From positions 1 to 53,557 of the forward strand of contig JBBRLQ010000043.1 of assembly GCA_038231275.1 (NCBI GenBank): 53,557 nt of DNA, in the 5' to 3' direction. The notes below the pieces were generated by a model, which made no database searches, was not told the origin of the DNA, and worked only from the letters and a program-made list of their open reading frames with translations. Of this stretch, positions 38,141 through 52,794 are shown one piece after another. The position numbers and the translations under genes were made by a program. Origin of the DNA: Polyangiales bacterium (GTDB lineage Bacteria > Myxococcota_A > Polyangia > Polyangiales > Polyangiaceae). Each line of letters begins with the position of its first letter. The first letter of the stretch is position 1.

Positions 38141-39748
38141 ATGAACACCCGCGTGCTTGTCGGCATCGCCCTGTCCTCGTCGTTGTCGTTGTCTCTTGGT
38201 TGCTCGTCCCCTGGTGCGACGGACACCGCGACGAGCGCCCCGCAGGCGGTGGTCAGCACCGGCCTCGTCATCAGCGGGGTCTACGGCGGCGGCGGAAACA
38301 CGGGGGCGACGTTCGCCAACGACTTCATCGAGCTGTTCAACCGCGGCACAACCAGCGTGTCCACGGCCGGGATGAGCCTCCAGTACGCGAGCGCGGCCGG
38401 CGACTTCGGTAGCCCCTTCGTTCTCCCGAGCGTGACGATCGCCCCCGGCCGGTATTTCCTCGTGCAAGGCAACAGCGCGGGCGCCGTCGGCAGCGCGCTC
38501 CCGACGCCGGACGCGATCTCGACGCTCAACCTCTCGTCGATCAACGGCAAGATGGCGCTCGCCAGCGTCACCACCGCGCTCGCGTGCGGTGGCGCCACGC
38601 GGTGCAACACGACGAACGTAGTCGACATGGTTGGCTACGGCACCGCCACCGACTTCGAGGGCCCTGCGGGGTCGGCAGTCGGCGCCCTCACGGCGACGAC
38701 CGGCGCGTACCGAAAAGGTGCAGGATGCACCGATACCGACGTGAACAACGCGGATTTCTCGATCGCGAACCCCGTGACTGCACCGCGCAATCAAGGCTCC
38801 GCGGCGGCGCCATGCGGCGGCGGAACCGACGCAGGCGTGGACGCCGACGACGGATCGACGGGCACCGACAGCGCGATCGCGGACACCGGCAGCGACACGT
38901 CGACGGGCACCGACAGCGGTCCCGGCAACGGCACCGGCCTCGTCATCAGCCAGGTCTTCGGCGGCGGCGGCAGCGGTGGCTCGGCGCCGGGCCGCGACTT
39001 CGTCGAGATCTTCAACCGCGGGACCGTCGACGTCGCGACGACCGGCCTCTCGCTCCAGGTCGGCGCGAGCGGCGCAGACTTCGGCGCCACCGCCGCCGAC
39101 GTGTTCGCGCTGCAAGATATCGTGGTCCCGCAAGGCGCGTACATCCTCGTCGGCCTCGGCCCGAGCGCAGACGCCGGGGTCGCGCTCCCGGCGCCGGACA
39201 TGGACGCGCCGACCTTGGCGCTCGACACGGCGAACGGCAAAGTCGCGCTCGCGAAGATCGCGACCGGCCTCGGCTGCGGCGGCGCGTCGCGCTGCAACGC
39301 GAACGTGGTCGACGTCGTCGGCTACGGCACGGCGACCGACTTCGAGGGCAGCGCGGCGACCGGCGCGCTGAACGGCTCTGCGAGCGCGAGCCGCAAGGGC
39401 GAAGGCTGCACGGACACCAACGACAACCGCGGCGACTTCACGGTCGGCGCGCCGAGCCCGCGAAACATTTCAACGCCCCGTAAGCGTTGCGCGGCGCCTC
39501 CCCCTCCGGACGACGGCGGCGTCACTCCCCCCGCCGACGACGCCGGCACGCTCCCGCCGATCGGCAAGCCCGACGCGGGCGCGAAGGGCGGCGACGCGGG
39601 CGGCATCGGAAATAACCCGGTCCCCGACGGCGGCACGACGGACACCGGCGGCTGCAACACGAGCCCCGCCCGCGGGGGAAACGCGTTCGCGTTCAGCCTC
39701 GCGATCCTCAGCCTCGCCGGGCTCCGCCGCCGCCGCCGCCACGTCTGA
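38141..39748 (+). CDS. Lipoprotein with two lamin-tail domains and MYXO-CTERM-like tail
   Basis: Lipobox SLGC; two LVIS.V[YF]GGGG..DF[IV]E.FNRG domains; GGC...hydrophobic...RRRRR. Confidence 0.88.
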   Translation: MNTRVLVGIALSSSLSLSLGCSSPGATDTATSAPQAVVSTGLVISGVYGGGGNTGATFANDFIELFNRGTTSVSTAGMSLQYASAAGDFGSPFVLPSVTIAPGRYFLVQGNSAGAVGSALPTPDAISTLNLSSINGKMALASVTTALACGGATRCNTTNVVDMVGYGTATDFEGPAGSAVGALTATTGAYRKGAGCTDTDVNNADFSIANPVTAPRNQGSAAAPCGGGTDAGVDADDGSTGTDSAIADTGSDTSTGTDSGPGNGTGLVISQVFGGGGSGGSAPGRDFVEIFNRGTVDVATTGLSLQVGASGADFGATAADVFALQDIVVPQGAYILVGLGPSADAGVALPAPDMDAPTLALDTANGKVALAKIATGLGCGGASRCNANVVDVVGYGTATDFEGSAATGALNGSASASRKGEGCTDTNDNRGDFTVGAPSPRNISTPRKRCAAPPPPDDGGVTPPADDAGTLPPIGKPDAGAKGGDAGGIGNNPVPDGGTTDTGGCNTSPARGGNAFAFSLAILSLAGLRRRRRHV

Positions 39749-39861
39749 CCTCGCGACGGGACGGGCTTCAGATCAAGGGGTTTGCAGGAATCGCCCGTCG
39801 TCACGCGCCACGCGGCAGATTGTCGCGGCGTCGCCACAATCGGGTGCTACACCTGGGCCCC

Positions 39862-41661
39862 ATGACCACCTCCTCTTACACGCGCGTGGCGCTCCGCATC
39901 GGCGCCCTCTTTTGCACTGCGGCCCTCACGTCGCTCGGCCTCGGCCTCGGCTGCTCCGCGCCCGGCTCGTCCGAGACCGGCAGCACTTCGCAGGCGGTCG
40001 GCAGCACCGGCCTCGTGATCAGCGCCGTCTACGGCGGCGGTGGTAACGCGGGCGCGACGTTCACGAACGACTTCGTTGAGCTCTACAACCGCGGCGCGAA
40101 TTCGGTCTCGCTCAACGGCATGAGCGTCCAGTACGGCAGCGCCACGGCGGACTTCGGTGCGCCGGTCGCTCTCCCGAACGTGACGATCGCCCCGGGACGC
40201 TACTTCCTCCTCCAGCTCGCGAGCGGCGGCGCCAACGGCGTCGCGCTCCCGACGGCGGACGCGACCGGCACGACGAACCTCTCGGGCACGAACGGCAAGG
40301 TGGCGCTCGCGAGCGTCACGACCGCGCTCGCGTGTGGCGGGGCGACGCGCTGCGCGACCGCGAACGTCGTCGACATGGTCGGCTACGGCACGGCGTCGGA
40401 CTACGAGGGGGCCACTGGCTCCGCGGTCGCCGCGCTCACCGCCACCTCCGGCGCGTTCCGGAAGGGTGCAGGATGCACGGATAGCGACGTCAACGTGGCC
40501 GACTTCGACGTCGTCACGCCGGTCGCCGTTCCCCGGAACCAGGCCACTGCGGCCGCGATCTGCGGCTCCGGCGGCGACGCGGGCAGCGACGCGAGCGACG
40601 ACGGCGCGAGCACCGACGGCGCGGCCGGCGACGCGAGCGACGACGGCGCGACGGCCGACGCGAGCGACGACGGCGCTACCGACGGCGCGATCGACGATGG
40701 CGCGACCGACGACGGCGCGACCGACGACGGCGCGACCGACGGCGGCGCCGACTCCGGGCCGAGCGACTCGGGCCCGAGCGACAGCGGCCCGGTCGAAGCC
40801 GGCCCTCCGGGCGACGGCACTGGCCTCGTGATCAGCGCGCTCTACGGCGGCGGCGGAAACAGCGGCGCCATCATCAACCACGACTTCGTCGAGCTCTTCA
40901 ACCGCTCGAACAGCAATGTCGCCACCAACGGCCTCTCGATCCAGTACGGCAGCGCGGCGCGTGACTTCGGCTCGCCGCTCGCCGACGGTGGTCCGAGCGT
41001 CGACATCCTCCCGCTCCCCGACATGGTGATCCCGTCGGGCGCGTACGTCCTCGTGAGCCTGTCGACGTCGAACGCCGACTCCGGCGCGCCGATCCCGACG
41101 CCCGACGTGCAGGGCGCACTCTCCCTCGCGTCGACGAACGGAAAGGTCGCGCTCGCGAAGGTCACGACCGGTCTCGGGTGCGGCGGCACCACGCGCTGCA
41201 CCACCGCCAACGTCGTCGACATGGTCGGCTACGGAACGTCGACGGACTTCGAGGGCTCTGCGGCCGTCGCGGTCCTGAGCAACACGACCGGCGCGGCGCG
41301 CAAGGGCGCGGGCTGCACCGACACGAACGACAACAAGGCGGACTTCGACGTCGCGGCCCCGGCGCCGCGCAACACCGCCACCGCGCGCGTGAAGTGCACG
41401 CAGCCCACGCCCGACGCCGGTCCCAACCCGGGCGACGACGCGGGCACTGACGACGGCGGCGGCCCCATCCCGCCGGCGAAGGACGCCGGACACGGCGGAA
41501 GCAGCGGCGGCGTCGACGGCGGCGGAAACGGCGACACCGGCGGCAGCTCCGACACCGGCGGCTGCGCGACGAGCGGCGCGGGTACTGGCGGCGAGAGCCC
41601 GCTGGCCTTCGCGATCGCCGCGCTCGGCGCCGTCATGGCGCGACGCCGTCGCCGCGCCTGA
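39862..41661 (+). CDS. Paralogous lipoprotein with two lamin-tail domains and MYXO-CTERM-like tail
   Basis: Lipobox GLGC; same two-domain layout; DDGAT linker; GGC...RRRR. Confidence 0.88.
   Translation: MTTSSYTRVALRIGALFCTAALTSLGLGLGCSAPGSSETGSTSQAVGSTGLVISAVYGGGGNAGATFTNDFVELYNRGANSVSLNGMSVQYGSATADFGAPVALPNVTIAPGRYFLLQLASGGANGVALPTADATGTTNLSGTNGKVALASVTTALACGGATRCATANVVDMVGYGTASDYEGATGSAVAALTATSGAFRKGAGCTDSDVNVADFDVVTPVAVPRNQATAAAICGSGGDAGSDASDDGASTDGAAGDASDDGATADASDDGATDGAIDDGATDDGATDDGATDGGADSGPSDSGPSDSGPVEAGPPGDGTGLVISALYGGGGNSGAIINHDFVELFNRSNSNVATNGLSIQYGSAARDFGSPLADGGPSVDILPLPDMVIPSGAYVLVSLSTSNADSGAPIPTPDVQGALSLASTNGKVALAKVTTGLGCGGTTRCTTANVVDMVGYGTSTDFEGSAAVAVLSNTTGAARKGAGCTDTNDNKADFDVAAPAPRNTATARVKCTQPTPDAGPNPGDDAGTDDGGGPIPPAKDAGHGGSSGGVDGGGNGDTGGSSDTGGCATSGAGTGGESPLAFAIAALGAVMARRRRRA
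40574..40790 (+). repeat. Coding tandem repeats (gacgacggcgcgacc = DDGAT; DSGPS) in acidic linker
   Basis: Imperfect 15-bp units. Confidence 0.8.
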
Positions 41662-41796: not shown

Positions 41797-42726
41797 GTGA
41801 ACATCGTCACCGGATCGCAGCGGTTCGAGCGTCTCTTGGGGACGCGTGCGCGTGCGGCGTTGGCGGCGACCGAGCTGCTCGGCGACGCCGACGTGTGCGC
41901 GCGCCACGCCGACGGCACGCTCCCGGCGATCTGGCGAATGGTCGGCGCGCGCGCGAACGGCGTGCTCATGGCGGAGGGCGAAGAGCTCTTCGTCGAACGC
42001 GTGAGGGGGCCATTGCGACGCGGCGCGGCGGTGTGCGTCGTGTCGGGCGGTCGCCTCGCGTGGCGGCGCGTCCTCGCGGTGCGAACGGATCGCGTGGTCC
42101 TGCGCGCCGACTCGGCGCCGTTCGCGGAGGAATGGACGGGCGGCGTCGCCGGAACGCTCCGGCCGCGCGCGCTGGATCGTCTTGCGGCGCTCGCGCCGAC
42201 GCGCTTCACCGATCTCGGCTGGGCGGCGTCGATGGGCGCGGCGCGCGCGTTCGCGGCGCTGCGCCGCCTCGGCCAGAAGACGAACGACGCGCCGGCGTTC
42301 ACGGCGCGTCCTCTCGGCCTCGAAGACTGGCCTCGCGTGCGCGCATTCTGGCTCGAGGCGTGCGGCGCGCCGCTCCACGTGAACGCGCAGCCAAACCAGC
42401 ACGTCGTCGGCCTCTTCACCTCGGACGGCGCGCTCGCCGGCGTGAACATCCAGCTCGTCACCCAGGGCGTCTCGTACTCGGCGTTCACGCTCGTCGATCG
42501 CCGGTTCCGCGGCCTCGGCGGCGGGAAGAAGATGGTCGAGGTCGCGCTCGCCGAGGCCCAGCGCCTCGGCATCGTGCTCGTGTACGTGCACATCCACGCG
42601 CGCAATTTCCCGTCGATCGCCGCTTACGTTGCCTGCGGCTTCCACTTCGCGCGCTGGTGGACCGACGAGAGCGATCCGCTGATGAGCGCGGAGCGTCAGT
42701 GGAGGGTGTACGAGCGGCGGCCGTGA
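41797..42726 (+). CDS. GNAT N-acetyltransferase with N-terminal degenerate S24/S26-peptidase-like region
   Basis: LVDRRFRGLGGG acetyl-CoA motif, N.PSIAAY...GF; start uncertain. Confidence 0.75.
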   Translation: MNIVTGSQRFERLLGTRARAALAATELLGDADVCARHADGTLPAIWRMVGARANGVLMAEGEELFVERVRGPLRRGAAVCVVSGGRLAWRRVLAVRTDRVVLRADSAPFAEEWTGGVAGTLRPRALDRLAALAPTRFTDLGWAASMGAARAFAALRRLGQKTNDAPAFTARPLGLEDWPRVRAFWLEACGAPLHVNAQPNQHVVGLFTSDGALAGVNIQLVTQGVSYSAFTLVDRRFRGLGGGKKMVEVALAEAQRLGIVLVYVHIHARNFPSIAAYVACGFHFARWWTDESDPLMSAERQWRVYERRP

Positions 42727-42754
42727 TCGCGTCGCCGGAGTCTCCGTCGCCCGC

Positions 42755-45700
42755 TCAGCGATCCGGCGACACGTTGCGAAGGGCCTCGGCGCAATCGTCG
42801 GCGATGACACGCACTTTTAGCTCTTCCGCCAATCCCTTGGAGCGCAAGAGCGAGGCGCTGGCTTCGGGCGAGGCTTGACGTTTCTGGAGGAGACCGAGCC
42901 AAAAGCGGGCGTGCATTTCGTGCCACGGCGCGGCTCGGCCCCGGAACCCGTCGGCGAGCTCTTTCAGGCGCGACGCGTTGTCGTCGAGGAACGCGAGCGC
43001 GATCTCGTTGTGAACGAGGAGTCGCTCTGCAACGATATCCCGCGCGATCTCGTTCGAATCGAGCAGTGCCTGGCGAGCCTTCTCTGGCTCACCGAGGCGT
43101 ATGTACTGTTCGCCGAGGTTGTGGAGGTGAAGGCTCTCTTCGTATCGAAGGCCGGCGTGATGCGCGAGGGCGACAGCTTGTTCCGCCGCCGTCGCTGCGT
43201 TCCTGTGGTCTCCAGCAAAGTAGAAGCAAACGAAACGCGCCTTCTGGCAATGCACGAGCGCAACAGGGTCGCCGGTGGAGCTCGTCGCGAGCGCTTCCGC
43301 TCGGCTCACCATGTCGAGGCCTCGTGAGAGCGCTTCACGACCGTCCACCGCGACCGTCGCGATCGCTAGGATGAGCAGCATGTCAGTTCGCTGCTGCGCG
43401 TCCGCCGGAAGGAGCGTTGAGCCGAGCGTGTCTCCGACGATCCCCCATTCGCCGCTGAAAGAGGCGACCTTCGCGGCAGCGTAGCGGACCTCTCGTGCTT
43501 GCGACTCGTCGTTCGCTGCCAGCCGTTGCGCTTCAGCGAGCAACGTCTGGGCCCCCGCGAGGTCTCCCAAGGCCGCGAGTGCGCCCGCAGACCACGCGAA
43601 GGCGGGCGCTGCCGAAGCGGCGCCGCTCGACTTGAGGTCGAGCAACGGGCCATCGAGCACCGCCTTGACCAGGGCAGCGCCAGAACGTGCTGACCTCAGA
43701 GCGCTCGACGCTTGTACGCGGGACTCGAGCCCCGTCACGACCTCGGTCGGATCGATACGACGTGTGGTCGAAAGCGCATCCGCGAGCATTCGAATTCGCG
43801 CGCCGGTTGTCGCCCCATCGGTGCTCGGTCCGTCGACGAGGAGAGCCCGTAACGCGCACCTTGCACTCGCCTCCGCCTGTGCCCGTGCGGCATTCGTCGC
43901 CGCCGCCTCGGCAAAGCACGCGGCGGCTTTGGACGACTCCCCAGCTTCGAAAAAGTGAAGGGCGATGGCCTCGCGATCTTCGTTGGTTCCGTGCAGCCAG
44001 GTTCCAGCCAGCCGGTGACCGAGGGTTCGGTCCTCGACCGTGAGGGTGGCGTACGCGGCACCGCGCAAAAGGGCATGGCGGAACACCATTTCGCGAGAGT
44101 CCGCGTAGTGTGATTTGTCGAGATGCGTAATCACCTCGTGCTCGATCAAGGCTGCAAGGAGGGGTTCCCACGCAGCCACTGGTTCACCGACGAGCGCGCT
44201 CACGCCCTCCACCGAGAACGTCTCGCCGAAGATGCTCGCCGCGCGTAGAAGCTTGCGCGCATCCGGGTCCAGCCGCTCCAGCCGCGCTTGCGCGACAGCG
44301 ATGAGCGTCTCTGGAAATGCGTCGGGGCGAAGCGAGGGACGCTGGGAGCGCCTTACCGGGATTCGCTCCGCGGCATCGCGAATGAGCTCTTCGAGGTAGA
44401 ACGCATTCCCCTCCGCGCGGACCACGATGCGCTGGATATCCTCGTCGGTTGCGGTCTCGCCCATGATCGCGCGCACCAACTTGGTCGCGGCGCGCGGGGG
44501 GAGCGGCGGGAGGCGCAGCTCGGTCAGGTGACGGTTTTCCCAGAGGCCTGGGAAGCGCTCATGTACTTCCGGGCGCGCTAGCGCGAGGACGAAGAGCGCT
44601 TCGCCTTCGAGCCTTCGGAGGACGGCGTCGACGAGCTTCACCGATGCGGGATCCGTCCAGTGGAGATCCTCGAGCACAAGGACCACTGGCCCCTTTTTGC
44701 ACCACGCACGCACGAGCTCCTCGAACGCACGTCGGATTTGATCGGCCATCGCCTCGGCGCTGTGGCGTGCGGCGCGGAGCGGGAGGTTCTCCCCGTCGTC
44801 GAACTGCTCGCCGACGAGCTCGCCGACGAAGTCCACGACGCGACCGACGTCGCCTTCGGGCAAGGACCCGCGGACATGCGCCTCGAGTCGCCCGCGCGTC
44901 TCGTCTCCCGTCTCGCGGCCCGACAGCTCGGCTGCTTGACGGACGGCTTGTCCGATCTGTGCGTACGGCGTCGCCGCGTGGAGCGGATCGCCGCGGCAAA
45001 GGAGGACGGTCGGCGGCGACGGAGAACCGTGTAGGCGGCGCACCAACTCGTGACGCAACCGCGATTTTCCGATCCCTGCCGCCGCAGTCACGAGCACCAC
45101 GCGCGGCCCCGCCCCCTCCAGGCACTCGGCGTACGTTGCCGCGAGAATGGTGACCTCGCGGTCGCGGCCGACACAGGCCGTCGGCTGCCCAAGCAGCGGG
45201 CGAGACGGATCGAGCGAGAGGCGCTCGTCGTCGAGGTAGACCCGCCCCGCGCTCTCGCGCAGATCGAAACGCGACGAGAGGAGCGCGCTCGTGACCTCGT
45301 CGACGTTCACGCCCGCGCCCGGAGGCGCCGCACGGACGATCGCGACGCCGCGATCGATCGCCTCTCCTATTGGCACGCGCGCGCCGGCGAGAGCGCTGCC
45401 GGTCGCGATGGCGACGGTTGCCCCTTCGTACGTGTCCGAGACGTACCGCGCGAAGCGGGCGAGCAGCGCGGCCTGATCGGCGCCCGTGACGCCGTCAGGC
45501 GCCATCGCGATCGCCGTGCGGCTGTCCATGGGCACCACGCGGACGCCGAACCGCGCGGACGTCGGTCCGAACGGATCGCCCTCCGCGCGCGTGGCCCCAG
45601 CCGCGCTTGGCGGGGGGACGGTCTTGCGCGGCAGTACGACGACGAGGACCGACGCGATCCGCTGCTCGTCGCCGGTGATCGCCGGCGCACGCAGGGCGGA

Positions 45701-46543
45701 AGGCGTCGTGTGCTCGATGTCCTCGAGCCACGCGAGGAGCTGCGCGCCGTCGCGCGGGCGCCGCTCCGGATCTTTGGCGACCATCCGGTGGACCAGGAGA
45801 TCGAGCGAGTCCGGCACCTCAGGGCGAAGGTCCCGGACGCGCGGCGACTCTTCAAGGACGATCTTGGCGAGGACCGCGAGCAGATCGCCTCCGCCGAACA
45901 GACGCTGCCCGGTCAGGCACTCGAAGAGGACGCACCCGAACGAAAAAATGTCCGCGCTCGGCGCGACCTCGTACCCACCGCGCGCCTGCTCGGGCGCGAT
46001 GAAGCCCGGTGTGCCGAGGAGCGCGCCGGTCAGTGTGATCGGCCGCTTCGACATCGGCCCGCGCGCGATGCCGAGATCGATGACCTTTACGTCTTCGAGC
46101 TTGCCGCGCGGCAAGAAGAGGTTGCTCGGCTTGAGGTCGCGATGCACGAGGCCGCGCGCGTGGATGTACGAGAGCGCCCCGGCCACGCGCAACGCGAGCG
46201 TGAGCGTCTCGTTGACGGACAGCGGCCCGCGCAGGACGCGGGCCTCGAGGTCCTCCCCCTCGAGCCACGGCATGACGAGGTACGGCGTCCCCTTGGCCGT
46301 CACGCCGTGGCTCACGTACCCGATGATGTGCGGATGATCGAGCGTGGAGAGGAGCTCGACCTCGTGCGTGAAGCGCTCGGCGAGCTGCTCTCCGTCGTGG
46401 CGTGACTCGGCCTCAACGAGGACCTTCAGCGCGACGTCGCGCTTCTGCACATGGTCGTGCGCTTTGTACACGACCCCCATCCCGCCGAGCCCCGCGCTCC
46501 GCAGGATCTCGAACCGCTCCGCGATGCGATCCCCCGGGTTCAT
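42755..46543 (-). CDS. Ser/Thr kinase - AAA/STAND-like ATPase - TPR multidomain signalling protein
   Basis: G.GGMG.VY, HRDLKPSN, DLG, GTPGFIAPEQ; VGRDRE, AGIGKSRL, VLEDLHW.D, GNAFYLEEL, FRHALLR. Confidence 0.93.
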   Translation of the reverse strand: MNPGDRIAERFEILRSAGLGGMGVVYKAHDHVQKRDVALKVLVEAESRHDGEQLAERFTHEVELLSTLDHPHIIGYVSHGVTAKGTPYLVMPWLEGEDLEARVLRGPLSVNETLTLALRVAGALSYIHARGLVHRDLKPSNLFLPRGKLEDVKVIDLGIARGPMSKRPITLTGALLGTPGFIAPEQARGGYEVAPSADIFSFGCVLFECLTGQRLFGGGDLLAVLAKIVLEESPRVRDLRPEVPDSLDLLVHRMVAKDPERRPRDGAQLLAWLEDIEHTTPSALRAPAITGDEQRIASVLVVVLPRKTVPPPSAAGATRAEGDPFGPTSARFGVRVVPMDSRTAIAMAPDGVTGADQAALLARFARYVSDTYEGATVAIATGSALAGARVPIGEAIDRGVAIVRAAPPGAGVNVDEVTSALLSSRFDLRESAGRVYLDDERLSLDPSRPLLGQPTACVGRDREVTILAATYAECLEGAGPRVVLVTAAAGIGKSRLRHELVRRLHGSPSPPTVLLCRGDPLHAATPYAQIGQAVRQAAELSGRETGDETRGRLEAHVRGSLPEGDVGRVVDFVGELVGEQFDDGENLPLRAARHSAEAMADQIRRAFEELVRAWCKKGPVVLVLEDLHWTDPASVKLVDAVLRRLEGEALFVLALARPEVHERFPGLWENRHLTELRLPPLPPRAATKLVRAIMGETATDEDIQRIVVRAEGNAFYLEELIRDAAERIPVRRSQRPSLRPDAFPETLIAVAQARLERLDPDARKLLRAASIFGETFSVEGVSALVGEPVAAWEPLLAALIEHEVITHLDKSHYADSREMVFRHALLRGAAYATLTVEDRTLGHRLAGTWLHGTNEDREAIALHFFEAGESSKAAACFAEAAATNAARAQAEASARCALRALLVDGPSTDGATTGARIRMLADALSTTRRIDPTEVVTGLESRVQASSALRSARSGAALVKAVLDGPLLDLKSSGAASAAPAFAWSAGALAALGDLAGAQTLLAEAQRLAANDESQAREVRYAAAKVASFSGEWGIVGDTLGSTLLPADAQQRTDMLLILAIATVAVDGREALSRGLDMVSRAEALATSSTGDPVALVHCQKARFVCFYFAGDHRNAATAAEQAVALAHHAGLRYEESLHLHNLGEQYIRLGEPEKARQALLDSNEIARDIVAERLLVHNEIALAFLDDNASRLKELADGFRGRAAPWHEMHARFWLGLLQKRQASPEASASLLRSKGLAEELKVRVIADDCAEALRNVSPDR

Positions 46544-46597
46544 CGTGTGTGGGTCAGGATAATCCGCTGCGGGCCCTTGATCAGCAGAAGATGCCGC

Positions 46598-46786
46598 CTA
46601 CCGGCGCTTCTTCAGGCTCTTCAACAGCTCCTTCCGCAGCTTCGGATCGTCGGCGGCAAAGTCCATTGCCGCCGCCAGTACTGAAAGAGCCGCTACCGCA
46701 GACGAGAATCGCCTGAGCAAGTCAGCGTCGACATTGAGCGTGACCTTCTTCTTCGAGCCCCTCTTCGCACCCTTTTTTGCAGCCAT
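46598..46786 (-). CDS. Small basic 62-aa protein (candidate YcaO/TfuA substrate or RHH-like protein)
   Basis: GGGAGAGG RBS; starts 12 nt after tfuA stop. Confidence 0.65.
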   Translation of the reverse strand: MAAKKGAKRGSKKKVTLNVDADLLRRFSSAVAALSVLAAAMDFAADDPKLRKELLKSLKKRR

Positions 46787-46798
46787 GTGTACCTCTCC

Positions 46799-47524
46799 CT
46801 AACGATTGATGGTTCTCGTCGCTTCCGATCTCCTGACCGTCCCCTTCGTTCCCCCTTCCTCGGCTCGTTCCCAAACCTTCCCGTCGACGAAGTCCTCCAG
46901 GTCCTGCGTTTTCCACGCGAAGCGCCCGAAATCACGCAGCTCCTCACGCACCTGCGCGGCGTCGTTCGCGCGCACGGCCAGCCCCTCGACGGCTCCACGT
47001 CGCGTGCGGTCGCCGTACCAGCGCGACTTCAAGTCCCGCAGGACATCGTCCGCCGCGGCCTCCGTCACCAAGCCCCGGCCGACCACATGGGCGATCGCCG
47101 CGCGTAGGTGAACGAGCGGCTCCGTCAGCGCCCGATACGGCGGCGCGCCCTCGTGGAGGAGCGCGACCTCGTCGTCCTGGAAGTCTCCCTCCTCCATGAA
47201 GCGCGCGAAGACGCGCCCGAAGCCGCGCATCCCGAGCGGCGCCATCTCGCGCGCACGAATGGCGCCCATCGACGACAGGCCCCACACCTGTACACCTCGC
47301 GCGATCGCCGCGCGCAGCTCCGCGTGACCGACGGCGAGCGCGTCGTGGAACACGCCGTCGCAGATCACGATCGTGCGCGGCAAGGGGCGCGCGTCGAGCA
47401 GCTTCGCGACGTCGAAGCGCCGAACGGGAGGGCGCACGCGAATGCCGCGCGCGAGGGTCGTGGCGCGCGCGCTCGCGGCGAGCGTGGGCCCGGCGAAGAG
47501 GACTACGTCAGCTCGCGCGCGCAT
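46799..47524 (-). CDS. tfuA: TfuA-like protein
   Basis: VLFAGPTL, PPVRR.D, DGVF...AV.H.E, G.SSMGAIRA.E....GM.GFG.VF, DDEVALLH, EPLVHLR. Confidence 0.93.
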   Translation of the reverse strand: MRARADVVLFAGPTLAASARATTLARGIRVRPPVRRFDVAKLLDARPLPRTIVICDGVFHDALAVGHAELRAAIARGVQVWGLSSMGAIRAREMAPLGMRGFGRVFARFMEEGDFQDDEVALLHEGAPPYRALTEPLVHLRAAIAHVVGRGLVTEAAADDVLRDLKSRWYGDRTRRGAVEGLAVRANDAAQVREELRDFGRFAWKTQDLEDFVDGKVWERAEEGGTKGTVRRSEATRTINR

Positions 47525-48725
47525 GGTCCCTCAGCCGCGGGCCGACGCGGTGGATCGTCTCGTTGAACATCTCGAGCCCGGGCACGATCACGCGCGCGAC
47601 CTGGAGCGCGTCCGCCTTCGCCGTGAACGCGACGCGGTACGCGCGCTCCATCCCGCACGCGCGGAGTCGCGCCAGAACGAGCCGGAGGCACGCGCCGACC
47701 GTCGTGGCCTTGGCGGACGCGTCGTCGAGCCCGCTCCACGCCACCGCCGTTCCTTCGGCGGCCTTCGCGACGACGCGCGCGACGAACGCCCGCGTGCGCG
47801 CGCGGCTCCATCCCTTGAAGCGCTCGTGCCGATCGACGAGATCGTCGCGTCCGCCGTGGATGAACGTGAGCCGGCTCTGCGCCGCCTCGCACACCGCGCG
47901 CACGAACGCGACGCTGCGGTGCGGATGGCAGCCATACCCGCCGTTCAGGAGGTGCGGCGCGAACGCCTCCGGATCGTGCACGATCGCCGCAAAATAAGGC
48001 ACCCCGAACACGTTCTTCGCCGTGCGCACGTAGAGCTCGAGCCCTGCGTCGCGAATCGTCCGCACGAGCTCGGCCGGAGCGCCTTGGACCGTGTCGAGAT
48101 CGACCGGCGCAGTCGTGTCGTTCACCGACAAGAGCGAGCGCACGTCGCGTTCGACGAGCTCGCAAATGCCGTGCACGGTCGCTTCGTCGATCGTGTTGCC
48201 CGACGCCAGCCCGTTCGAGCTCGAACCGAAGTGCCCCCTGAAGCGCGAGTGCGGTCGGTACGGCAAGAAGACGAGCTCCGCCGGTACCAGCGTGCGCGCG
48301 CCCGTCGTGATCTCCTCGGCGCACACGCAATCCATCGGCGCGTCGAGCCGGATGTGCGCGCCGAGCCGCGGACAGAGATCCAGGATCGCCTCGGGCCGCG
48401 CGCGTCCGTCGAGCACGTCGCGCGCCGTCGCCTTCACCACCCGCACGCGCGAAGCTCCAGGCTCGGCGAGCGCGAACTCGATCGCCTCCATGTACGCCCC
48501 CACCTCCGCTTCGATGGGGCGAAGGCCCTTGCCGGCGTTCACGCAGAGCGATCCTTCAGTCGCGCCCGGACGGATGCTCGCGTACACCGGCACGCCGACG
48601 CGATCGAGGCGCGTGATGTCGGTCACACGCGTGATGCCCAGCCCCTTCGCGCGCTGCTTCGCACGGGCCAGCGTCACTTCGGGGGATGTCGATCTTAGGC
48701 TTGAACTGAGTGTGACGCTTCGCAA
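47508..48725 (-). CDS. ycaO: YcaO-family protein (TfuA-associated, thioamide-forming type)
   Basis: GITRV.DIT.LDR.GVPV, GKG, MEAIE, SSNGLASGN...EA...GICELVERD, G.GCHP, EAAQSRLT.IHG.RDD, VIVPGLE. Confidence 0.95.
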   Translation of the reverse strand: MRSVTLSSSLRSTSPEVTLARAKQRAKGLGITRVTDITRLDRVGVPVYASIRPGATEGSLCVNAGKGLRPIEAEVGAYMEAIEFALAEPGASRVRVVKATARDVLDGRARPEAILDLCPRLGAHIRLDAPMDCVCAEEITTGARTLVPAELVFLPYRPHSRFRGHFGSSSNGLASGNTIDEATVHGICELVERDVRSLLSVNDTTAPVDLDTVQGAPAELVRTIRDAGLELYVRTAKNVFGVPYFAAIVHDPEAFAPHLLNGGYGCHPHRSVAFVRAVCEAAQSRLTFIHGGRDDLVDRHERFKGWSRARTRAFVARVVAKAAEGTAVAWSGLDDASAKATTVGACLRLVLARLRACGMERAYRVAFTAKADALQVARVIVPGLEMFNETIHRVGPRLRDHARAS

Positions 48726-48778
48726 GCCGAGCTCCGCCAGTACTAAAGGGAGCTTTGCACTCTAGCTGACGAGCATCG

Positions 48779-50218
48779 TCACGCCAGCGCGCGCGCTTCG
48801 AACTTCGCGAGCCGACGCATCGCGGTTCGCGCGGCGTGGTATCCGCACATGCCGTGCACGCCACCGCCCGGCGGCGTCGACGACGAACAGAGGAGCACGC
48901 GAGGGTTCGGCGTCGTGTAGGGATTGAGGCGCGCGATCGGGCGCGTGAAGAGCTGTGACAAATCGGCGACGCCGCCGGTGATCGCGCCCCCGACGAGGTT
49001 CGGGTTGTGCCGCTCGAGATCGGCGGGTGACGTCGTATGACGCGCGAGGATGCGATCGCGAAAGCCCGGCGCAAACCGCTCGATTTGCGCCTCGATGCGC
49101 GCCGTCATGTCGACGGTGGATCCCGCCGGGACGTGGCAGTACGCGTACCCTGTCTGCTTTCCTGGAGGCGCGCGCGACGGATCGAGCTCGCTCTGCTGCA
49201 CGACGAGCACGAACGGTTTGTCGGCGTGATCGCCCCGGTACATCGCGGCCTCCGACACGGCGAGCTCTTCGATCGTCCCACCCACGTGGACGGTCGATGC
49301 CTCGAGGCAGCGCGGATCCTTCCACGGGATCGATCCATCGAGCGCCCAATCGACCTTGAACACGCCAGGCCCGTATCTGAACTTTCGTAGACGTCGCAGG
49401 TAGCCATCAGGGAGTGCCTGACCCGCGATCCTTTCCAATTGAGCGGGGCTCGTGTCGAACAAGAACACGCGCGCCGGCGGCAGATCCTTCAGGCTCTTCA
49501 CGAACCGACCGGTCTCGATCGTTCCCCCGTGCGCGCCGAGCAAGCTCGCGAGCGCGCGTGCGATCGATCGCGACCCTCCCTTCGCCACCGGCCACGCGTC
49601 GACGTGCGCGGTCACGAGGAACATGAGACCGATGGCCGCGGTCAGCGCCCGATCGAGCGGGAGGATCGAATGCGACGCGCACCCACCAAAGAGCGCGCGC
49701 GCTCGCACGTCGTCGAAGCGCTTCGCGAGGCCGAGCGCCGAACGCACAGCGTGCCACCCGAAGCGCATCATGAGGAACGGATGCCGCGGGATCCGGAGAG
49801 GTGCGAGCGCGTCATGAAGGAGCCCGTGCGGATCGCGGAGGAACGGCGCGACCAGTCGCCGGTAGCTCTCCGCGTCGCCGCCCAGATCCGCGCACGTCTC
49901 TTCGAGCGACGTGCGCAGGACGACCGCCGGTTGATCGTCGAGCGGATGCGCGACCGACGCCTTGGGACGCAGCCACGTGAGCCCGTGCTCTTCGAGCGGC
50001 AGCGTGCGGAAGAACGGCGAGAGCACGCCCATCGGGTGCGCGGCGGAGCACACGTCGTGCAGATACCCCGGGAGCGTCAGCTCGGCGGAGCGGGTTCCGC
50101 CACCGATCTCGTCCATCGCTTCGAGGACGAGGACCTTCGCCCCCTCACGCGCGAGCGCGACGGCCGCCGCGAGCCCATTCGGGCCCGAGCCGACGATGAC
50201 GACATCCGGATCGCTCAC
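48779..50218 (-). CDS. Phytoene dehydrogenase-like FAD-dependent oxidoreductase
   Basis: VGSGPNGL.AA, GGG.RS.ELTLPG..HDVCSA.HP, CSSSTPPGGGVHGMCG. Confidence 0.92.
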   Translation of the reverse strand: MSDPDVVIVGSGPNGLAAAVALAREGAKVLVLEAMDEIGGGTRSAELTLPGYLHDVCSAAHPMGVLSPFFRTLPLEEHGLTWLRPKASVAHPLDDQPAVVLRTSLEETCADLGGDAESYRRLVAPFLRDPHGLLHDALAPLRIPRHPFLMMRFGWHAVRSALGLAKRFDDVRARALFGGCASHSILPLDRALTAAIGLMFLVTAHVDAWPVAKGGSRSIARALASLLGAHGGTIETGRFVKSLKDLPPARVFLFDTSPAQLERIAGQALPDGYLRRLRKFRYGPGVFKVDWALDGSIPWKDPRCLEASTVHVGGTIEELAVSEAAMYRGDHADKPFVLVVQQSELDPSRAPPGKQTGYAYCHVPAGSTVDMTARIEAQIERFAPGFRDRILARHTTSPADLERHNPNLVGGAITGGVADLSQLFTRPIARLNPYTTPNPRVLLCSSSTPPGGGVHGMCGYHAARTAMRRLAKFEARALA

Positions 50219-50219
50219 G

Positions 50220-51890
50220 TCACCCTTCCGTCGCAGGCGGGCTCGCCGTCGCCGACCACGGCTGTCGCGTCCGAAGCTCGGCGACGTCGAGGTCGCCCTC
50301 TTCGAGCAATCCCTTCTTCGCGTCGTGGATGCGGTAGCCCATTTTCGATCCACCGAACGGCTGCGCCTCGACGAAGATGCACCGCAGCTCTCCCTCCTCG
50401 AAGCCGCACTGCGCTTGCACGTTCGCGAGGAGCTGCTCGCGGTGAAGGTGCCCGTCGCCGAAGTTCCACCCGAGGACGAGTCCTGCGATGAGCTCGCCGT
50501 CGAAGTACTCGTAGTCGAGAAAGTCTCCGACCGCCTTCGGCACCAGCAGCGGCAGCGCGCGACCGTGAAGATGCATCAGCCGAAATCCCATCACCTTGCC
50601 GAGCAGCCCCACCGACGTGCTCTTGTCGTAGAACTTCGCGAGCTGATCGTAGATCCACGGCGCGCTCGTCGTGAGGCGCGCGAGCTTCCGCTTGGCGCAA
50701 TCCCCCTTGAAGAGCCACACGCCGTACGCCCAGTTGCCGGCGTAGTACCGCATCGCCAAGAGGAACGAGAGCTGCTTCGGGAAGATGTTGCCGAGGAGCG
50801 GCGCGCCGATGAGCATCGCGACGAGGAACGCCGAGAGCGGAGTCACGCCGAGCTGCCAGATGGTGACGTCGGGATGCGCCCAGAAGAGCGCGAACGCGCC
50901 GTACACGACGATCACGTTCCACTCGATCGGTACGCCCATCGGCACGTTGCTCGTGATGAACGCGTGGAGGCCGAGCATCAGCACCATCCCGACGACGAGC
51001 GACGTTCCGCCGGGGGACAGCATCAGCACCGCCGGCACGCCGACCTCGAGGAGCGTCCCTCCATGGCCCATGATCTCGGCGAAGCGCGCCGGACGCAGAT
51101 CCTTCGGAAAATTCCGGTACATCCGCTTCCGCAGCCACGCGAAGCGCGCGAACGGGCTGTTGCTCGTCATCACGCAGACGACGGTCGGGAAATGATGATT
51201 GAGCTTCGAGAAGCCGGCCCAGAACCAGAGCGCGAGCTGCACCGCCTTGGCGCCACCTATCCAGTCCGGTGTGACGACGAAGCAGACGATCGTCGTCCAA
51301 AAATGCTCGGCGCGGAGCGCGAGGAAGATCGTCTTGTCGGCGATGCCCACGAACGGCACGAGCACCATGATCGGGACGAGCATCTCGCGATCGATCGCGG
51401 GCGCCACGAGCGCGCGCACCGTCACGACGAGGAGCGCGATGTAGAGCGCGACATCGACCATCGTGCGCCGCGCGCCGCCGAGGAGGGGAAGGGAAGGGAA
51501 GAGCGGCAGCTTCGTCGTCCCCGGACGCAGCCAATAGAGGAAGCCCCCGACCGGTGGAAAGTAACGCCCGGTGAGCGGCCCGCTCCCACACCCGAGGCCC
51601 AACCCCTCGAAGAGCATGCTCCACAGGATCGCCTTCTGGAACGCGAGCGGCGAGAGGCACCACGCCCCGATCGTGGACAGCCCGCCGAGCGACGGCGAAA
51701 ACCCGCAGAACCAGACCCAGGCCCCGATATAGAGGAGGACCTTCACCACGTAGAGCCCGTACGCCGCGATCGGCGTCCCGTACCCCTGCAGTGCCCACGA
51801 CTCGCAGACCATCCGTCCGCGCTCGGCGAAAGGCTTCTTGATCCATTCGAGGGGATCGTAGGGCGGGGGAATCGGCTGGAGGAGGCTCAA
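50220..51890 (-). CDS. DUF3556-like transmembrane protein
   Basis: FQKAILWS.LFE.LG, SGPLT, DKTIFLA.R.EH, SKLN.HF, VP.EWN, MRYYAGNW, GWNFGDGHLH. Confidence 0.8.
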   Translation of the reverse strand: MSLLQPIPPPYDPLEWIKKPFAERGRMVCESWALQGYGTPIAAYGLYVVKVLLYIGAWVWFCGFSPSLGGLSTIGAWCLSPLAFQKAILWSMLFEGLGLGCGSGPLTGRYFPPVGGFLYWLRPGTTKLPLFPSLPLLGGARRTMVDVALYIALLVVTVRALVAPAIDREMLVPIMVLVPFVGIADKTIFLALRAEHFWTTIVCFVVTPDWIGGAKAVQLALWFWAGFSKLNHHFPTVVCVMTSNSPFARFAWLRKRMYRNFPKDLRPARFAEIMGHGGTLLEVGVPAVLMLSPGGTSLVVGMVLMLGLHAFITSNVPMGVPIEWNVIVVYGAFALFWAHPDVTIWQLGVTPLSAFLVAMLIGAPLLGNIFPKQLSFLLAMRYYAGNWAYGVWLFKGDCAKRKLARLTTSAPWIYDQLAKFYDKSTSVGLLGKVMGFRLMHLHGRALPLLVPKAVGDFLDYEYFDGELIAGLVLGWNFGDGHLHREQLLANVQAQCGFEEGELRCIFVEAQPFGGSKMGYRIHDAKKGLLEEGDLDVAELRTRQPWSATASPPATEG

Positions 51891-52003
51891 GGTGCACCCA
51901 TCGCGAGGTGCTCTACGCGGGGCTCAGCCGGGGGGATGCATGCAGACGCGAGCACGCGCGCGAGCGTACGCGGAGCAAGCTCCGCGCCAGGGATTAAAAA
52001 CGT

Positions 52004-52043
52004 TTGCGTGACGCGCGGATTGGAGTAAAAAGCGCGTCCCCGC
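52004..52043 (+). promoter_or_regulatory. Putative sigma70-type promoter for rpsD-rpoA block
   Basis: TTGCGT-N16-TAAAAA-GCGCGTCCCCGC with A tract upstream; matches the rplV upstream motif. Confidence 0.65.
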
Positions 52044-52164
52044 TCCTCTGGAGCACGCCGGGATGAAGCCCTTCGCCACCTGGCGAAGGCGTGTAAACCG
52101 GGTTTCTGGTTCCTCCGTCCGTTCTGTCGATTGCGGCGCGGAGGACCCAAAAAAGGTAATAAAA

Positions 52165-52794
52165 ATGGCTCGTTACATCGGTCCGGTCTGCAGGTTGTGC
52201 CGCCGGGAGGGCATGAAGCTCTTCCTCAAGGGCGAGCGCTGCTACTCGGAGAAGTGCTCCTACACCCGCCGGCCGTACCCGCCGGGTCAGCACGGCCAGG
52301 GCCGCATCAAGCTCAGCGAGTACGCCGTTCGTCTCCGCGAGAAGCAGAAGGTTCGCCGCATTTACGGCGTCCTCGAGCGCCAGTTCCGCGAGTACTACTT
52401 CGACGCGACGCGCCGCAAGGGCCGCACCGGCGAGCAAATGCTGGGGCTCTTGGAGAGTCGCCTCGACAACGTCGTCTACCGCCTCGGCTTCGCGGCCACG
52501 CGCGTCGAAGCGCGCCAACTCGTCCAGCACGGCCACATCAACATCAACGGCAAGCGCGTCGACATCCCGAGCTACCTCCTCCGCAACGGGGACAAGATCG
52601 AGATCCGCGAGAAGAGCCGTGAGCTGAAGCTCATCGCCGCGTCGCTCGCCCAGGTCGAGAAGCGCCCGATGATGTCGTGGCTCGAGCTCGACAAGGCGAA
52701 CTTCGCCGGCACCTACAAGGGCCAGGCGGTCCGCGAAGAGATGAACGAGCCGCAGATTCGCGAGCAGCTCGTCGTCGAGTACTACTCGCGCTGA
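52165..52794 (+). CDS. rpsD: 30S ribosomal protein S4
   Basis: [45 protein letters not shown]. Confidence 0.99.

Follow-up and report, generated by a model that had tools for sequence, protein, structure and literature searches.

Thioamide formation by YcaO proteins is described as an ATP-dependent activation of a backbone carbonyl, with sulfide supplied by TfuA from a thiocarboxylated carrier (PMC8120280, PMC13063428, PMC8939145), and delivery of the sulfur through TfuA and ThiS is reported in two of these sources (PMC13063428, PMC8939145). Known substrates include proteins, as McrA is thioamidated by a methanogen YcaO-TfuA pair and uL16 by the YcaO of E. coli (PMC13063428); in both systems, the modified protein stays intact within the cell, and the same is proposed below for the locus of this study. 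Adjacent ycaO, tfuA, and short peptide genes, likewise the arrangement found here, occur in the clusters of the thiovarsolins (PMC6511847), StdGH/StdA (PMC13174530), and Tha-1 (PMC9576775), and varAYT alone yields thioamidated products, which is comparable to the three-gene core of the present locus (PMC6511847).

Two further groups of clusters resemble the locus in part. A putative "YcaO cluster" of Pseudomonas and Streptomyces comprises a precursor, YcaO, TfuA, an unknown protein, a ubiquitin-like protein, ThiF, and an MFS protein (PMC8719888), and matching precursors of this sister type are included in Supplementary Dataset 4 of PMC6511847. For Corallococcus, the legend to Fig. S5 of PMC8120280 gives a TfuA-YcaO gene cluster family in which a Ser/Thr kinase and three putative precursors are neighbors of TfuA and YcaO. 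This cluster is listed there without comment, and its likeness to the present locus lies in the gene content given in that legend; the words "myxo" and "kinase" are absent from the main text of that paper. In full-text literature searches, which mostly cover journals outside subscription, no publication on the four-gene cassette described below was found.

The window, which is the whole stretch of 53,557 nucleotides analyzed from a Polyangiales bacterium of the family Polyangiaceae, encodes the following features:

47508..48725, minus strand: ycaO, 405 aa, TTG start; thioamide-forming type, as judged by similarity and its tfuA partner
46799..47524, minus strand: tfuA, 241 aa, sharing 17 nt with the end of ycaO
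46792..46799, minus strand: RBS of the small gene, GGGAGAGG, read from the sequence, five bases ahead of the ATG
46598..46786, minus strand: small basic protein gene, 62 aa; likely YcaO substrate of an unnamed family
46745..46786, minus strand: Lys-rich N-terminus of the small protein; charge conserved, sequence not
46688..46744, minus strand: V15-A33, the strand-Asp-helix head; likely YcaO-recognition leader, from conservation and a profile match to sister peptides
46646..46684, minus strand: S35-D47, the segment likely to carry the modification; pattern S-E-L-A-x-A, followed by five variable positions and D-D
46601..46642, minus strand: Lys/Arg-rich C-terminal tail; charge conserved, sequence not
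42755..46543, minus strand: kinase-STAND-TPR gene, 1262 aa, starting 54 nt downstream of the small ORF

The original prediction had described a minimal locus in which ycaO overlaps tfuA and a strongly RBS-led ORF follows 12 nt later, with basic ends around FSSAVAALSVLAAAMDFAA and no other tailoring genes. The 17-nt overlap on the minus strand, the 12-nt gap containing GGGAGAGG five bases before the ATG, and the basic ends of the 62-aa ORF were all confirmed in the sequence, and no tailoring enzymes were found to be conserved in the cassette. The locus is not minimal, however, as a conserved fourth gene, which encodes the 1262-aa kinase 54 nt downstream, had been overlooked. The TTG start of ycaO is also used in genome G001. 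A search of positions 42500 to 52200 revealed no sigma-70-type promoter, and terminator-like sites were no more frequent there than in shuffled sequence (4 versus 5.2). Locus maps revealed that the flanking genes vary between genera, which indicates that the four genes move together; ycaO, tfuA, the small protein gene, and the kinase gene form one conserved four-gene cassette. The upstream DUF3556 and phytoene-dehydrogenase-like genes were considered as further members and rejected, as G001 alone among the mapped loci has them as well.

Several differences from the described systems are evident. Compared with the thiovarsolin, StdGH/StdA, and Tha-1 clusters, as these are portrayed in the sources above, the candidate precursor belongs to another family, has basic ends, and lacks repeats and a double Gly, while the locus has no conserved tailoring enzyme or exporter and includes a dedicated kinase-STAND-TPR gene. 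In contrast to the McrA and uL16 systems, the likely substrate is a co-encoded protein of 50-70 residues; both enzymes score under the family cut-offs of the McrA system, and the uL16 enzyme is acidic whereas the window YcaO is basic (pI 9.3). The Pseudomonas and Streptomyces clusters have YcaOs of a sister clade at 40-49% identity, and the head of their precursors is related through Acidobacteria-type peptides. However, their sulfur relay, oxygenases, exporter, and acidic His/Asn-rich tail are all absent from the window locus, where the kinase is present instead.

Both enzymes pass their Pfam cut-offs (YcaO, PF02624, E 5.8e-66; TfuA, PF07812, E 6.7e-34), are each single-copy in the genome according to the family search, and are encoded side by side, as is characteristic of YcaO-TfuA systems. 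The best NCBIfam and PDB matches of both are to the methanogen thioamide-forming pair. The closest solved relative of the YcaO is the thioamide-forming MJ1094 (6PE3, E 5.3e-30), and the TfuA matches 6XP8 (E 5.2e-22). The pair nevertheless falls outside the equivalogs for McrA-glycine thioamidation, with 231 bits for the YcaO against TIGR03266 (cut-off 365) and 128 bits for the TfuA against NF033432 (cut-off 235). Residues N171-G172, S175, E189, E192, R193, D194, E280, Q283, and R285 of the YcaO are at least 90% conserved among 117 homologues, and SNGLASGN, ExxERD, and ExxQSR, which we take to be nucleotide- or metal-binding motifs, are conserved and agree with MJ1094. The Arg of MJ1094 in MEAIERF is replaced by Phe in the window YcaO and throughout its clade. 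As a side observation, the peptide and the YcaO are basic and segments of the kinase are acidic, a pattern of net charge that was judged too weak to count.

The close relatives of the YcaO come from Polyangiaceae and related myxobacteria. In midpoint-rooted FastTree trees with SH-like support, 22 Polyangiaceae-type rows formed one branch (SH 100), which grouped with the Acidobacteria-type enzymes (support 89). In a phylum sample, TfuA was found in 2 of 41 genomes, and when genome contigs were scanned with a single TfuA sequence, none of 469 candidates was confirmed. Three ubiquitin-like ORFs ending in GG, found by pattern and regarded as candidate sulfur carriers, are located elsewhere in the genome of the window.

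Conservation of the downstream peptide with ycaO had been set beforehand as the test of its proposed role as the substrate. Besides the window, 25 clade loci were collected, metagenome loci included, and 24 distinct loci were kept: L051 was excluded because it nearly duplicates L050, and L062 repeats the peptide of L036. A homologue of the peptide was present in all 17 untruncated loci (at least 900 nt past ycaO), which are kin and hence not independent, and the remaining 7 of the 24 end within 500 nt. The peptide is kept where tfuA is absent (L037) and where the gene order is altered. For example, a peptide directly precedes ycaO in L044 and L035, and the order peptide-kinase-peptide-ycaO-tfuA was observed in L044 and likewise, across two contigs, in G306. 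The peptide is duplicated in L044, G306, and G003. All eight pairs tested had a peptide dN/dS below 1 (0.19-0.79); together with the homologues beside ycaO in every untruncated locus, this indicates that the small ORF is more than a chance reading frame.

Among 383 genomes of the host's family, with four candidates scored per genome and the unpublished G307 and G308 entering denominators only, a YcaO match at an E of 1e-60 or lower was found in nine. Eight of them, including the genome of the window, had at least 65% identity and one had 41%. A profile of 20 peptides, trained on the same loci that it later matched in the genomes, matched exactly those eight, and it also found one unseen copy (G306, contig C201). 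The two peptides of L023 were recovered by this 20-row profile and not by a 75-row profile at E 0.01.

The 62-aa peptide matched no Pfam family at an E of 0.1 or lower and had no usable match in the ESM Atlas. A search of 1.84 billion representatives yielded 99 matches without genomic context, of which 96 were shorter than 120 aa; the other three, long proteins with repetitive sequence, were removed, leaving 96 members that stand for clusters under 50% identity. The family is diverse and unnamed, and no earlier description of it was found. Conserved positions are found in the head (V15 92%, D20 83%, L27 96%, and A30 97%) and in the segment that follows (S35 67%, E36 62%, A38 90%, A40 84% with Gly in 10%, D46 75%, and D47 58%). 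The span from D20 to D46 is 27 residues in 94 of the 96 members, and a net charge of at least +2 was found in 86 C-terminal tails and 83 N-terminal ends. An AlphaFold2 model from a 20-row alignment (mean pLDDT 80.5) predicted helices at 21-45 and 48-61; the monomer did not show a strand in the N-terminal region despite the conserved alternating pattern.

Two analogies drawn in the original prediction did not survive comparison with the family. It had likened the small protein to a thioviridamide-like (thioamitide) precursor with the core SVLAAA, and the window copy does offer SVLAAA against SVMAAA, next to a YcaO-TfuA pair and within an Ala-rich stretch as in the thioamitides (NF033415). However, S[VI][LM]AAA occurs in only one of the 96 members, the window's own; the family consensus is SELAxA, with Glu at position 36 in 62% of members. 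NF033415 matched none of 20 members, and the window peptide lacks the C-terminal Cys that accompanies an SVMAAA-type core in thioamitides. A real thioviridamide-family cluster, the one found in 331 Streptomyces genomes (L262), was used for comparison. Its precursor is unrelated, with a score of 10.8 on the family profile that lies in the range of its own shuffles (top 13.6), its YcaO and TfuA are 31% and 34% identical to those of the window with the YcaO outside the clade, the window YcaO is not of the TvaH type, and the further tailoring genes between its precursor and YcaO are missing from the window locus. With motif, profile, and enzyme comparisons all failing, the thioamitide reading was rejected as extremely improbable. 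The other suggestion, a ribbon-helix-helix (RHH) DNA-binding regulator of the operon, possibly itself thioamidated, draws on a V-T-L-N-V-D strand of alternating pattern that leads into a helix, on the basic ends and the tandem repeats of Acidobacteria-type relatives, and on weak matches to the BrnA antitoxin (3 of 20 members, E of at least 0.11, residues 7-27) and to TraY (1 of 20, E 0.012). These sub-threshold matches of RHH type concern only the first strand and helix. The turn between the helices of this fold is usually Gly-x-Ser, and neither a turn nor a separate helix B was seen in the AlphaFold2 model or in the alignment, where positions 28-38 contain Gly in at most 8% and Pro in at most 1% of the 96 members and helix 21-45 is continuous. 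No RHH protein was among the solved-structure matches at an E of 10 or lower, and no family scored over its cut-off for the window peptide or the 20 members. The RHH fold was accordingly rejected and is considered very improbable. What stands of the original proposal is that the peptide is conserved with ycaO, and on comparative sequence grounds the 62-aa protein is the best candidate for the YcaO-TfuA substrate, an assignment that appears probable with good confidence.

Peptides beside sister YcaOs provided further insights into the likely leader. A short gene frequently lies immediately upstream of ycaO in loci whose YcaO is 40-55% identical, which come from Acidobacteria, Pseudomonas, Streptomyces, Bacteroidota, and other groups. 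Its product has basic ends and two tandem units in the Acidobacteria type, while it ends in a His/Asn-rich tail in the Pseudomonas/Streptomyces type, where ThiF-rhodanese, MFS, and cupin genes are part of the clusters, as would be expected of a sulfur-using peptide pathway. The core of the window family matched the Acidobacteria-type repeat units with P 88%, E 2.9e-6, and a score of 24.6, where 60 column shuffles reached no more than 13.6, a match that is partly built in because the units were cut by a pattern requiring the hydrophobic-Asp-helix spacing. These units in turn matched the Pseudomonas/Streptomyces-type peptides with P 73%, and the direct match between the window family and the Pseudomonas-type precursors was weak (12.4 versus shuffles of up to 10.6). 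Because the same head recurs on peptides beside sister YcaOs, the conserved strand-Asp-helix head is likely to be the leader for YcaO recognition. The alignment places A38 and A40, both small and conserved, close to the Ser-Gly-Ala and Ala-Gly that the sister peptides conserve; as this register varies between runs, Ala38 or Ala40 can be offered only as a guess at the thioamide site.

The fourth gene is intact and encodes a Hanks-type Ser/Thr kinase domain (Pkinase, E 1.8e-40), an AAA_16 domain (E 5e-20), and TPR-like helical repeats. The ATPase part contains the motifs GIGKS and LVLEDLHW, and a model of residues 430-1262 (pLDDT 82) had the STAND-TPR structure 6MFV as its best match (E 3.4e-12). 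The protein thus has the STAND layout of an effector, a P-loop ATPase with helical and winged-helix parts, and a C-terminal repeat sensor. The same order of kinase, ATPase, and helical repeats is found in the TOMM kinase/cyclase fusion (TIGR03903) and in STAND-TPR sensors (6MFV, Avs3). By its name, TIGR03903 presumably links such a kinase to YcaO-type peptide clusters, but the window protein scores 275 bits against a cut-off of 706 and its partner is a YcaO-TfuA pair rather than an azoline-forming system. Kinases are abundant in this genome (103 matches). A reading as a defense system, from PADLOC, was rejected as resting on generic matches that covered only the kinase domain among the matches listed.

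The kinase gene adjoins the peptide gene in all 14 loci with sequence beyond the peptide; the other 3 of the 17 untruncated loci end about 125 nt after it. These 14 kinase domains form one clade (SH 99) apart from the best 40 of 102 own-genome paralogues, all 14 keep the catalytic-loop HRDLKPSN, their pairings mirror the YcaO tree, and the kinase is retained through locus rearrangement. Orthologues of the C-terminal part at an E of 1e-70 or lower were found in 7 of the 383 genomes (next best 1.8e-23), six of which are ycaO-positive. Exceptions were also observed: no kinase orthologue was found in G003 (80% complete), where ycaO, tfuA, and two peptides are present, G207 (89% complete) has the kinase at a contig start with no YcaO match, and contig C42 of G015 carries a lone kinase remnant. 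Six Acidobacteria-type loci carry a kinase-TPR gene as well, a different one that is convergent with tfuA, while no such gene was found in the available flanking sequence of others such as L129 and L063. The apparent recruitment of a different kinase-TPR protein by this related peptide family suggests that the pairing of a putative thioamide peptide with a kinase may be a recurring design.

Based on these observations, a mechanism can be proposed in which the four genes, conserved as one cassette, would act together. YcaO would bind the head V15-A33 as a leader, as suggested by its recurrence beside sister YcaOs, and would spend ATP to activate a backbone carbonyl within S35-A45, perhaps that of Ala38 or Ala40. 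Sulfur would arrive via TfuA from a carrier protein presumably encoded elsewhere in the genome, following the chemistry established for the family. The product would probably remain an intact, uncut intracellular protein, because neither a protease nor an exporter is conserved, whereas the basic character of the two ends is. Finally, and in what is the weakest step, gene linkage alone suggests a possible role for the modified protein as a ligand or an inhibitor of the kinase, or as a protein that the kinase phosphorylates. The chain as a whole, in which YcaO-TfuA thioamidates the small protein and the latter stays in the cell and works with the kinase, is held to be moderately probable. More tentatively, the thioamide may itself be a signal: the thioamidated protein would serve as the ligand or the switch of the dedicated Ser/Thr kinase, which is NLR-like in its STAND-TPR architecture, and phosphorylation might then possibly report on the supply of sulfur or on damage to the thioamidated protein.

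Two other readings of the cassette must be weighed against this proposal. An ordinary RiPP pathway could have a housekeeping protease remove the leader to release a short thioamidated core of about S35-D47, with the kinase phosphorylating the precursor as a tailoring step or controlling production. The leader type is indeed common to clusters with exporter and tailoring genes, precursors are duplicated, and Ser or Thr occupies position 35 in 73% of members; varA, varY, and varT suffice for thioamidated thiovarsolin products (PMC6511847), and transporters may be absent according to Malit et al. (PMC8120280). In contrast, no cleavage motif, protease, or exporter is conserved in the locus maps, the D20-D46 spacing is fixed, and the basic tails are kept. 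The 1262-aa STAND-TPR kinase also has a sensor architecture, and we know of no RiPP kinase with this architecture. A pathway of this kind was thus regarded as rather unlikely.

Alternatively, the small protein could be an unmodified adaptor or inhibitor of the YcaO or the kinase, while the substrate of YcaO-TfuA would be a larger protein, for example the kinase itself, in the manner of McrA or uL16; YcaO enzymes that act on proteins are documented (PMC13063428, PMC5589413). The whole helix is conserved with an Ala-lined face, resembling a folded binding element more than a typical variable core, and it runs unbroken through S35-A45, where a YcaO substrate must open; both features count against the small protein as the substrate. 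In the common gene order, moreover, the peptide always adjoins the kinase. However, the same head precedes clearly core-like repeats in sister clusters without this kinase, G003 keeps two peptides where the kinase was not found, and a peptide sits directly before ycaO in L044 and L035. An unmodified partner was therefore considered quite unlikely, and the small protein as the modified, intracellular partner of the kinase remained the preferred reading.

The cassette is real and conserved and represents an undescribed form of YcaO-TfuA thioamidation system, which has a small-protein family of its own and a sensor kinase dedicated to it; the modification and its coupling to the kinase are predicted from sequence comparison. 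It adds a new and diverse family of candidate substrates, known from 96 clusters at less than 50% identity, together with a candidate leader motif, to an uncharacterized branch of thioamide-forming YcaOs that is widely distributed across myxobacteria, Acidobacteria, Pseudomonas, and Streptomyces. Should the link to the kinase not be functional, the cassette would be one more uncharacterized thioamide peptide system. If the link is functional, the thioamide would gain a signaling role, and there would be a candidate ligand for one of the numerous orphan STAND kinases that Polyangiaceae encode.

Six cassettes of the Acidobacteria type, in which the peptide is followed by ycaO and tfuA, were accompanied by a convergent (tail to tail) Ser/Thr kinase-TPR gene of 820-865 aa. 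Its placement among the compared loci was:

L084, L086, L130, L140, L148, and L150: Ser/Thr kinase-TPR gene directly 3' of tfuA, opposite strand

At locus L128, the kinase-TPR gene 3' of such a cassette is apparently split. Upstream of the peptide, related cassettes also adjoin repeat-bearing regulators of other kinds, namely a TPR protein gene in L059 and an AAA_16-LuxR protein gene in L192.

Two genomes of the family sample, G003 and G015, contained cassette variants:

L023:6092-6515 (G003): two tandem peptides
L037:7551-9008 (G015, contig C55): ycaO, peptide, and kinase, without tfuA

The tandem peptides in G003 have no basic tails and carry a Cys within the helix, and a kinase orthologue was not found in this genome. 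This combination possibly constitutes a natural test of the link between tail and kinase. Besides its tfuA-less cassette, G015 encodes a second, complete cassette, as well as a kinase remnant on contig C42.

The following genes flank the cassette in the window:

48779-51890, upstream, cassette strand: DUF3556 membrane protein and phytoene-dehydrogenase-like oxidoreductase
39820-41661: secreted-looking protein with lamin-tail-domain repeats (Pfam LTD)
about 38250-39750: second secreted-looking protein of this kind, recognized by the similarity of its start

The upstream pair was considered for cassette membership and was taken as bystanders, as locus maps showed these genes to be common to G001 only. 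The adjoining lamin-tail-domain-repeat proteins are encoded next to ribosomal protein genes.

Other precursor types were observed before ycaO-tfuA. Peptides that appeared lasso-type by eye lie immediately upstream in L078-L081, L108, L141, and L182, and three of these loci, L079, L080, and L182, also show a kinase-domain match at approximately 5 kb upstream. Haliscomenobacter-type precursors with repeated VKAWA units precede ycaO-tfuA in L082, L083, L135, and L137. A putative thioamidated lanthipeptide-like cluster may be represented by one further locus:

L066:4303-8631: tandem pair of ycaO genes with tfuA, an ORF of 1082 aa, and two peptides rich in Cys

Loci L164, L186, L188, L197, and L199 form one YcaO branch, located within or adjoining NiFe-hydrogenase genes, such as those for the NiFe-hydrogenase large subunit (L164) and HypD (L186). 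In most of these loci, tfuA was not found around ycaO. The upstream peptides combine the head of the window's peptide family, a conserved strand-Asp-helix segment, with short repeats of an Ala-His-Cys-Gly type, and this branch possibly carries out a peptide modification linked to the hydrogenase.
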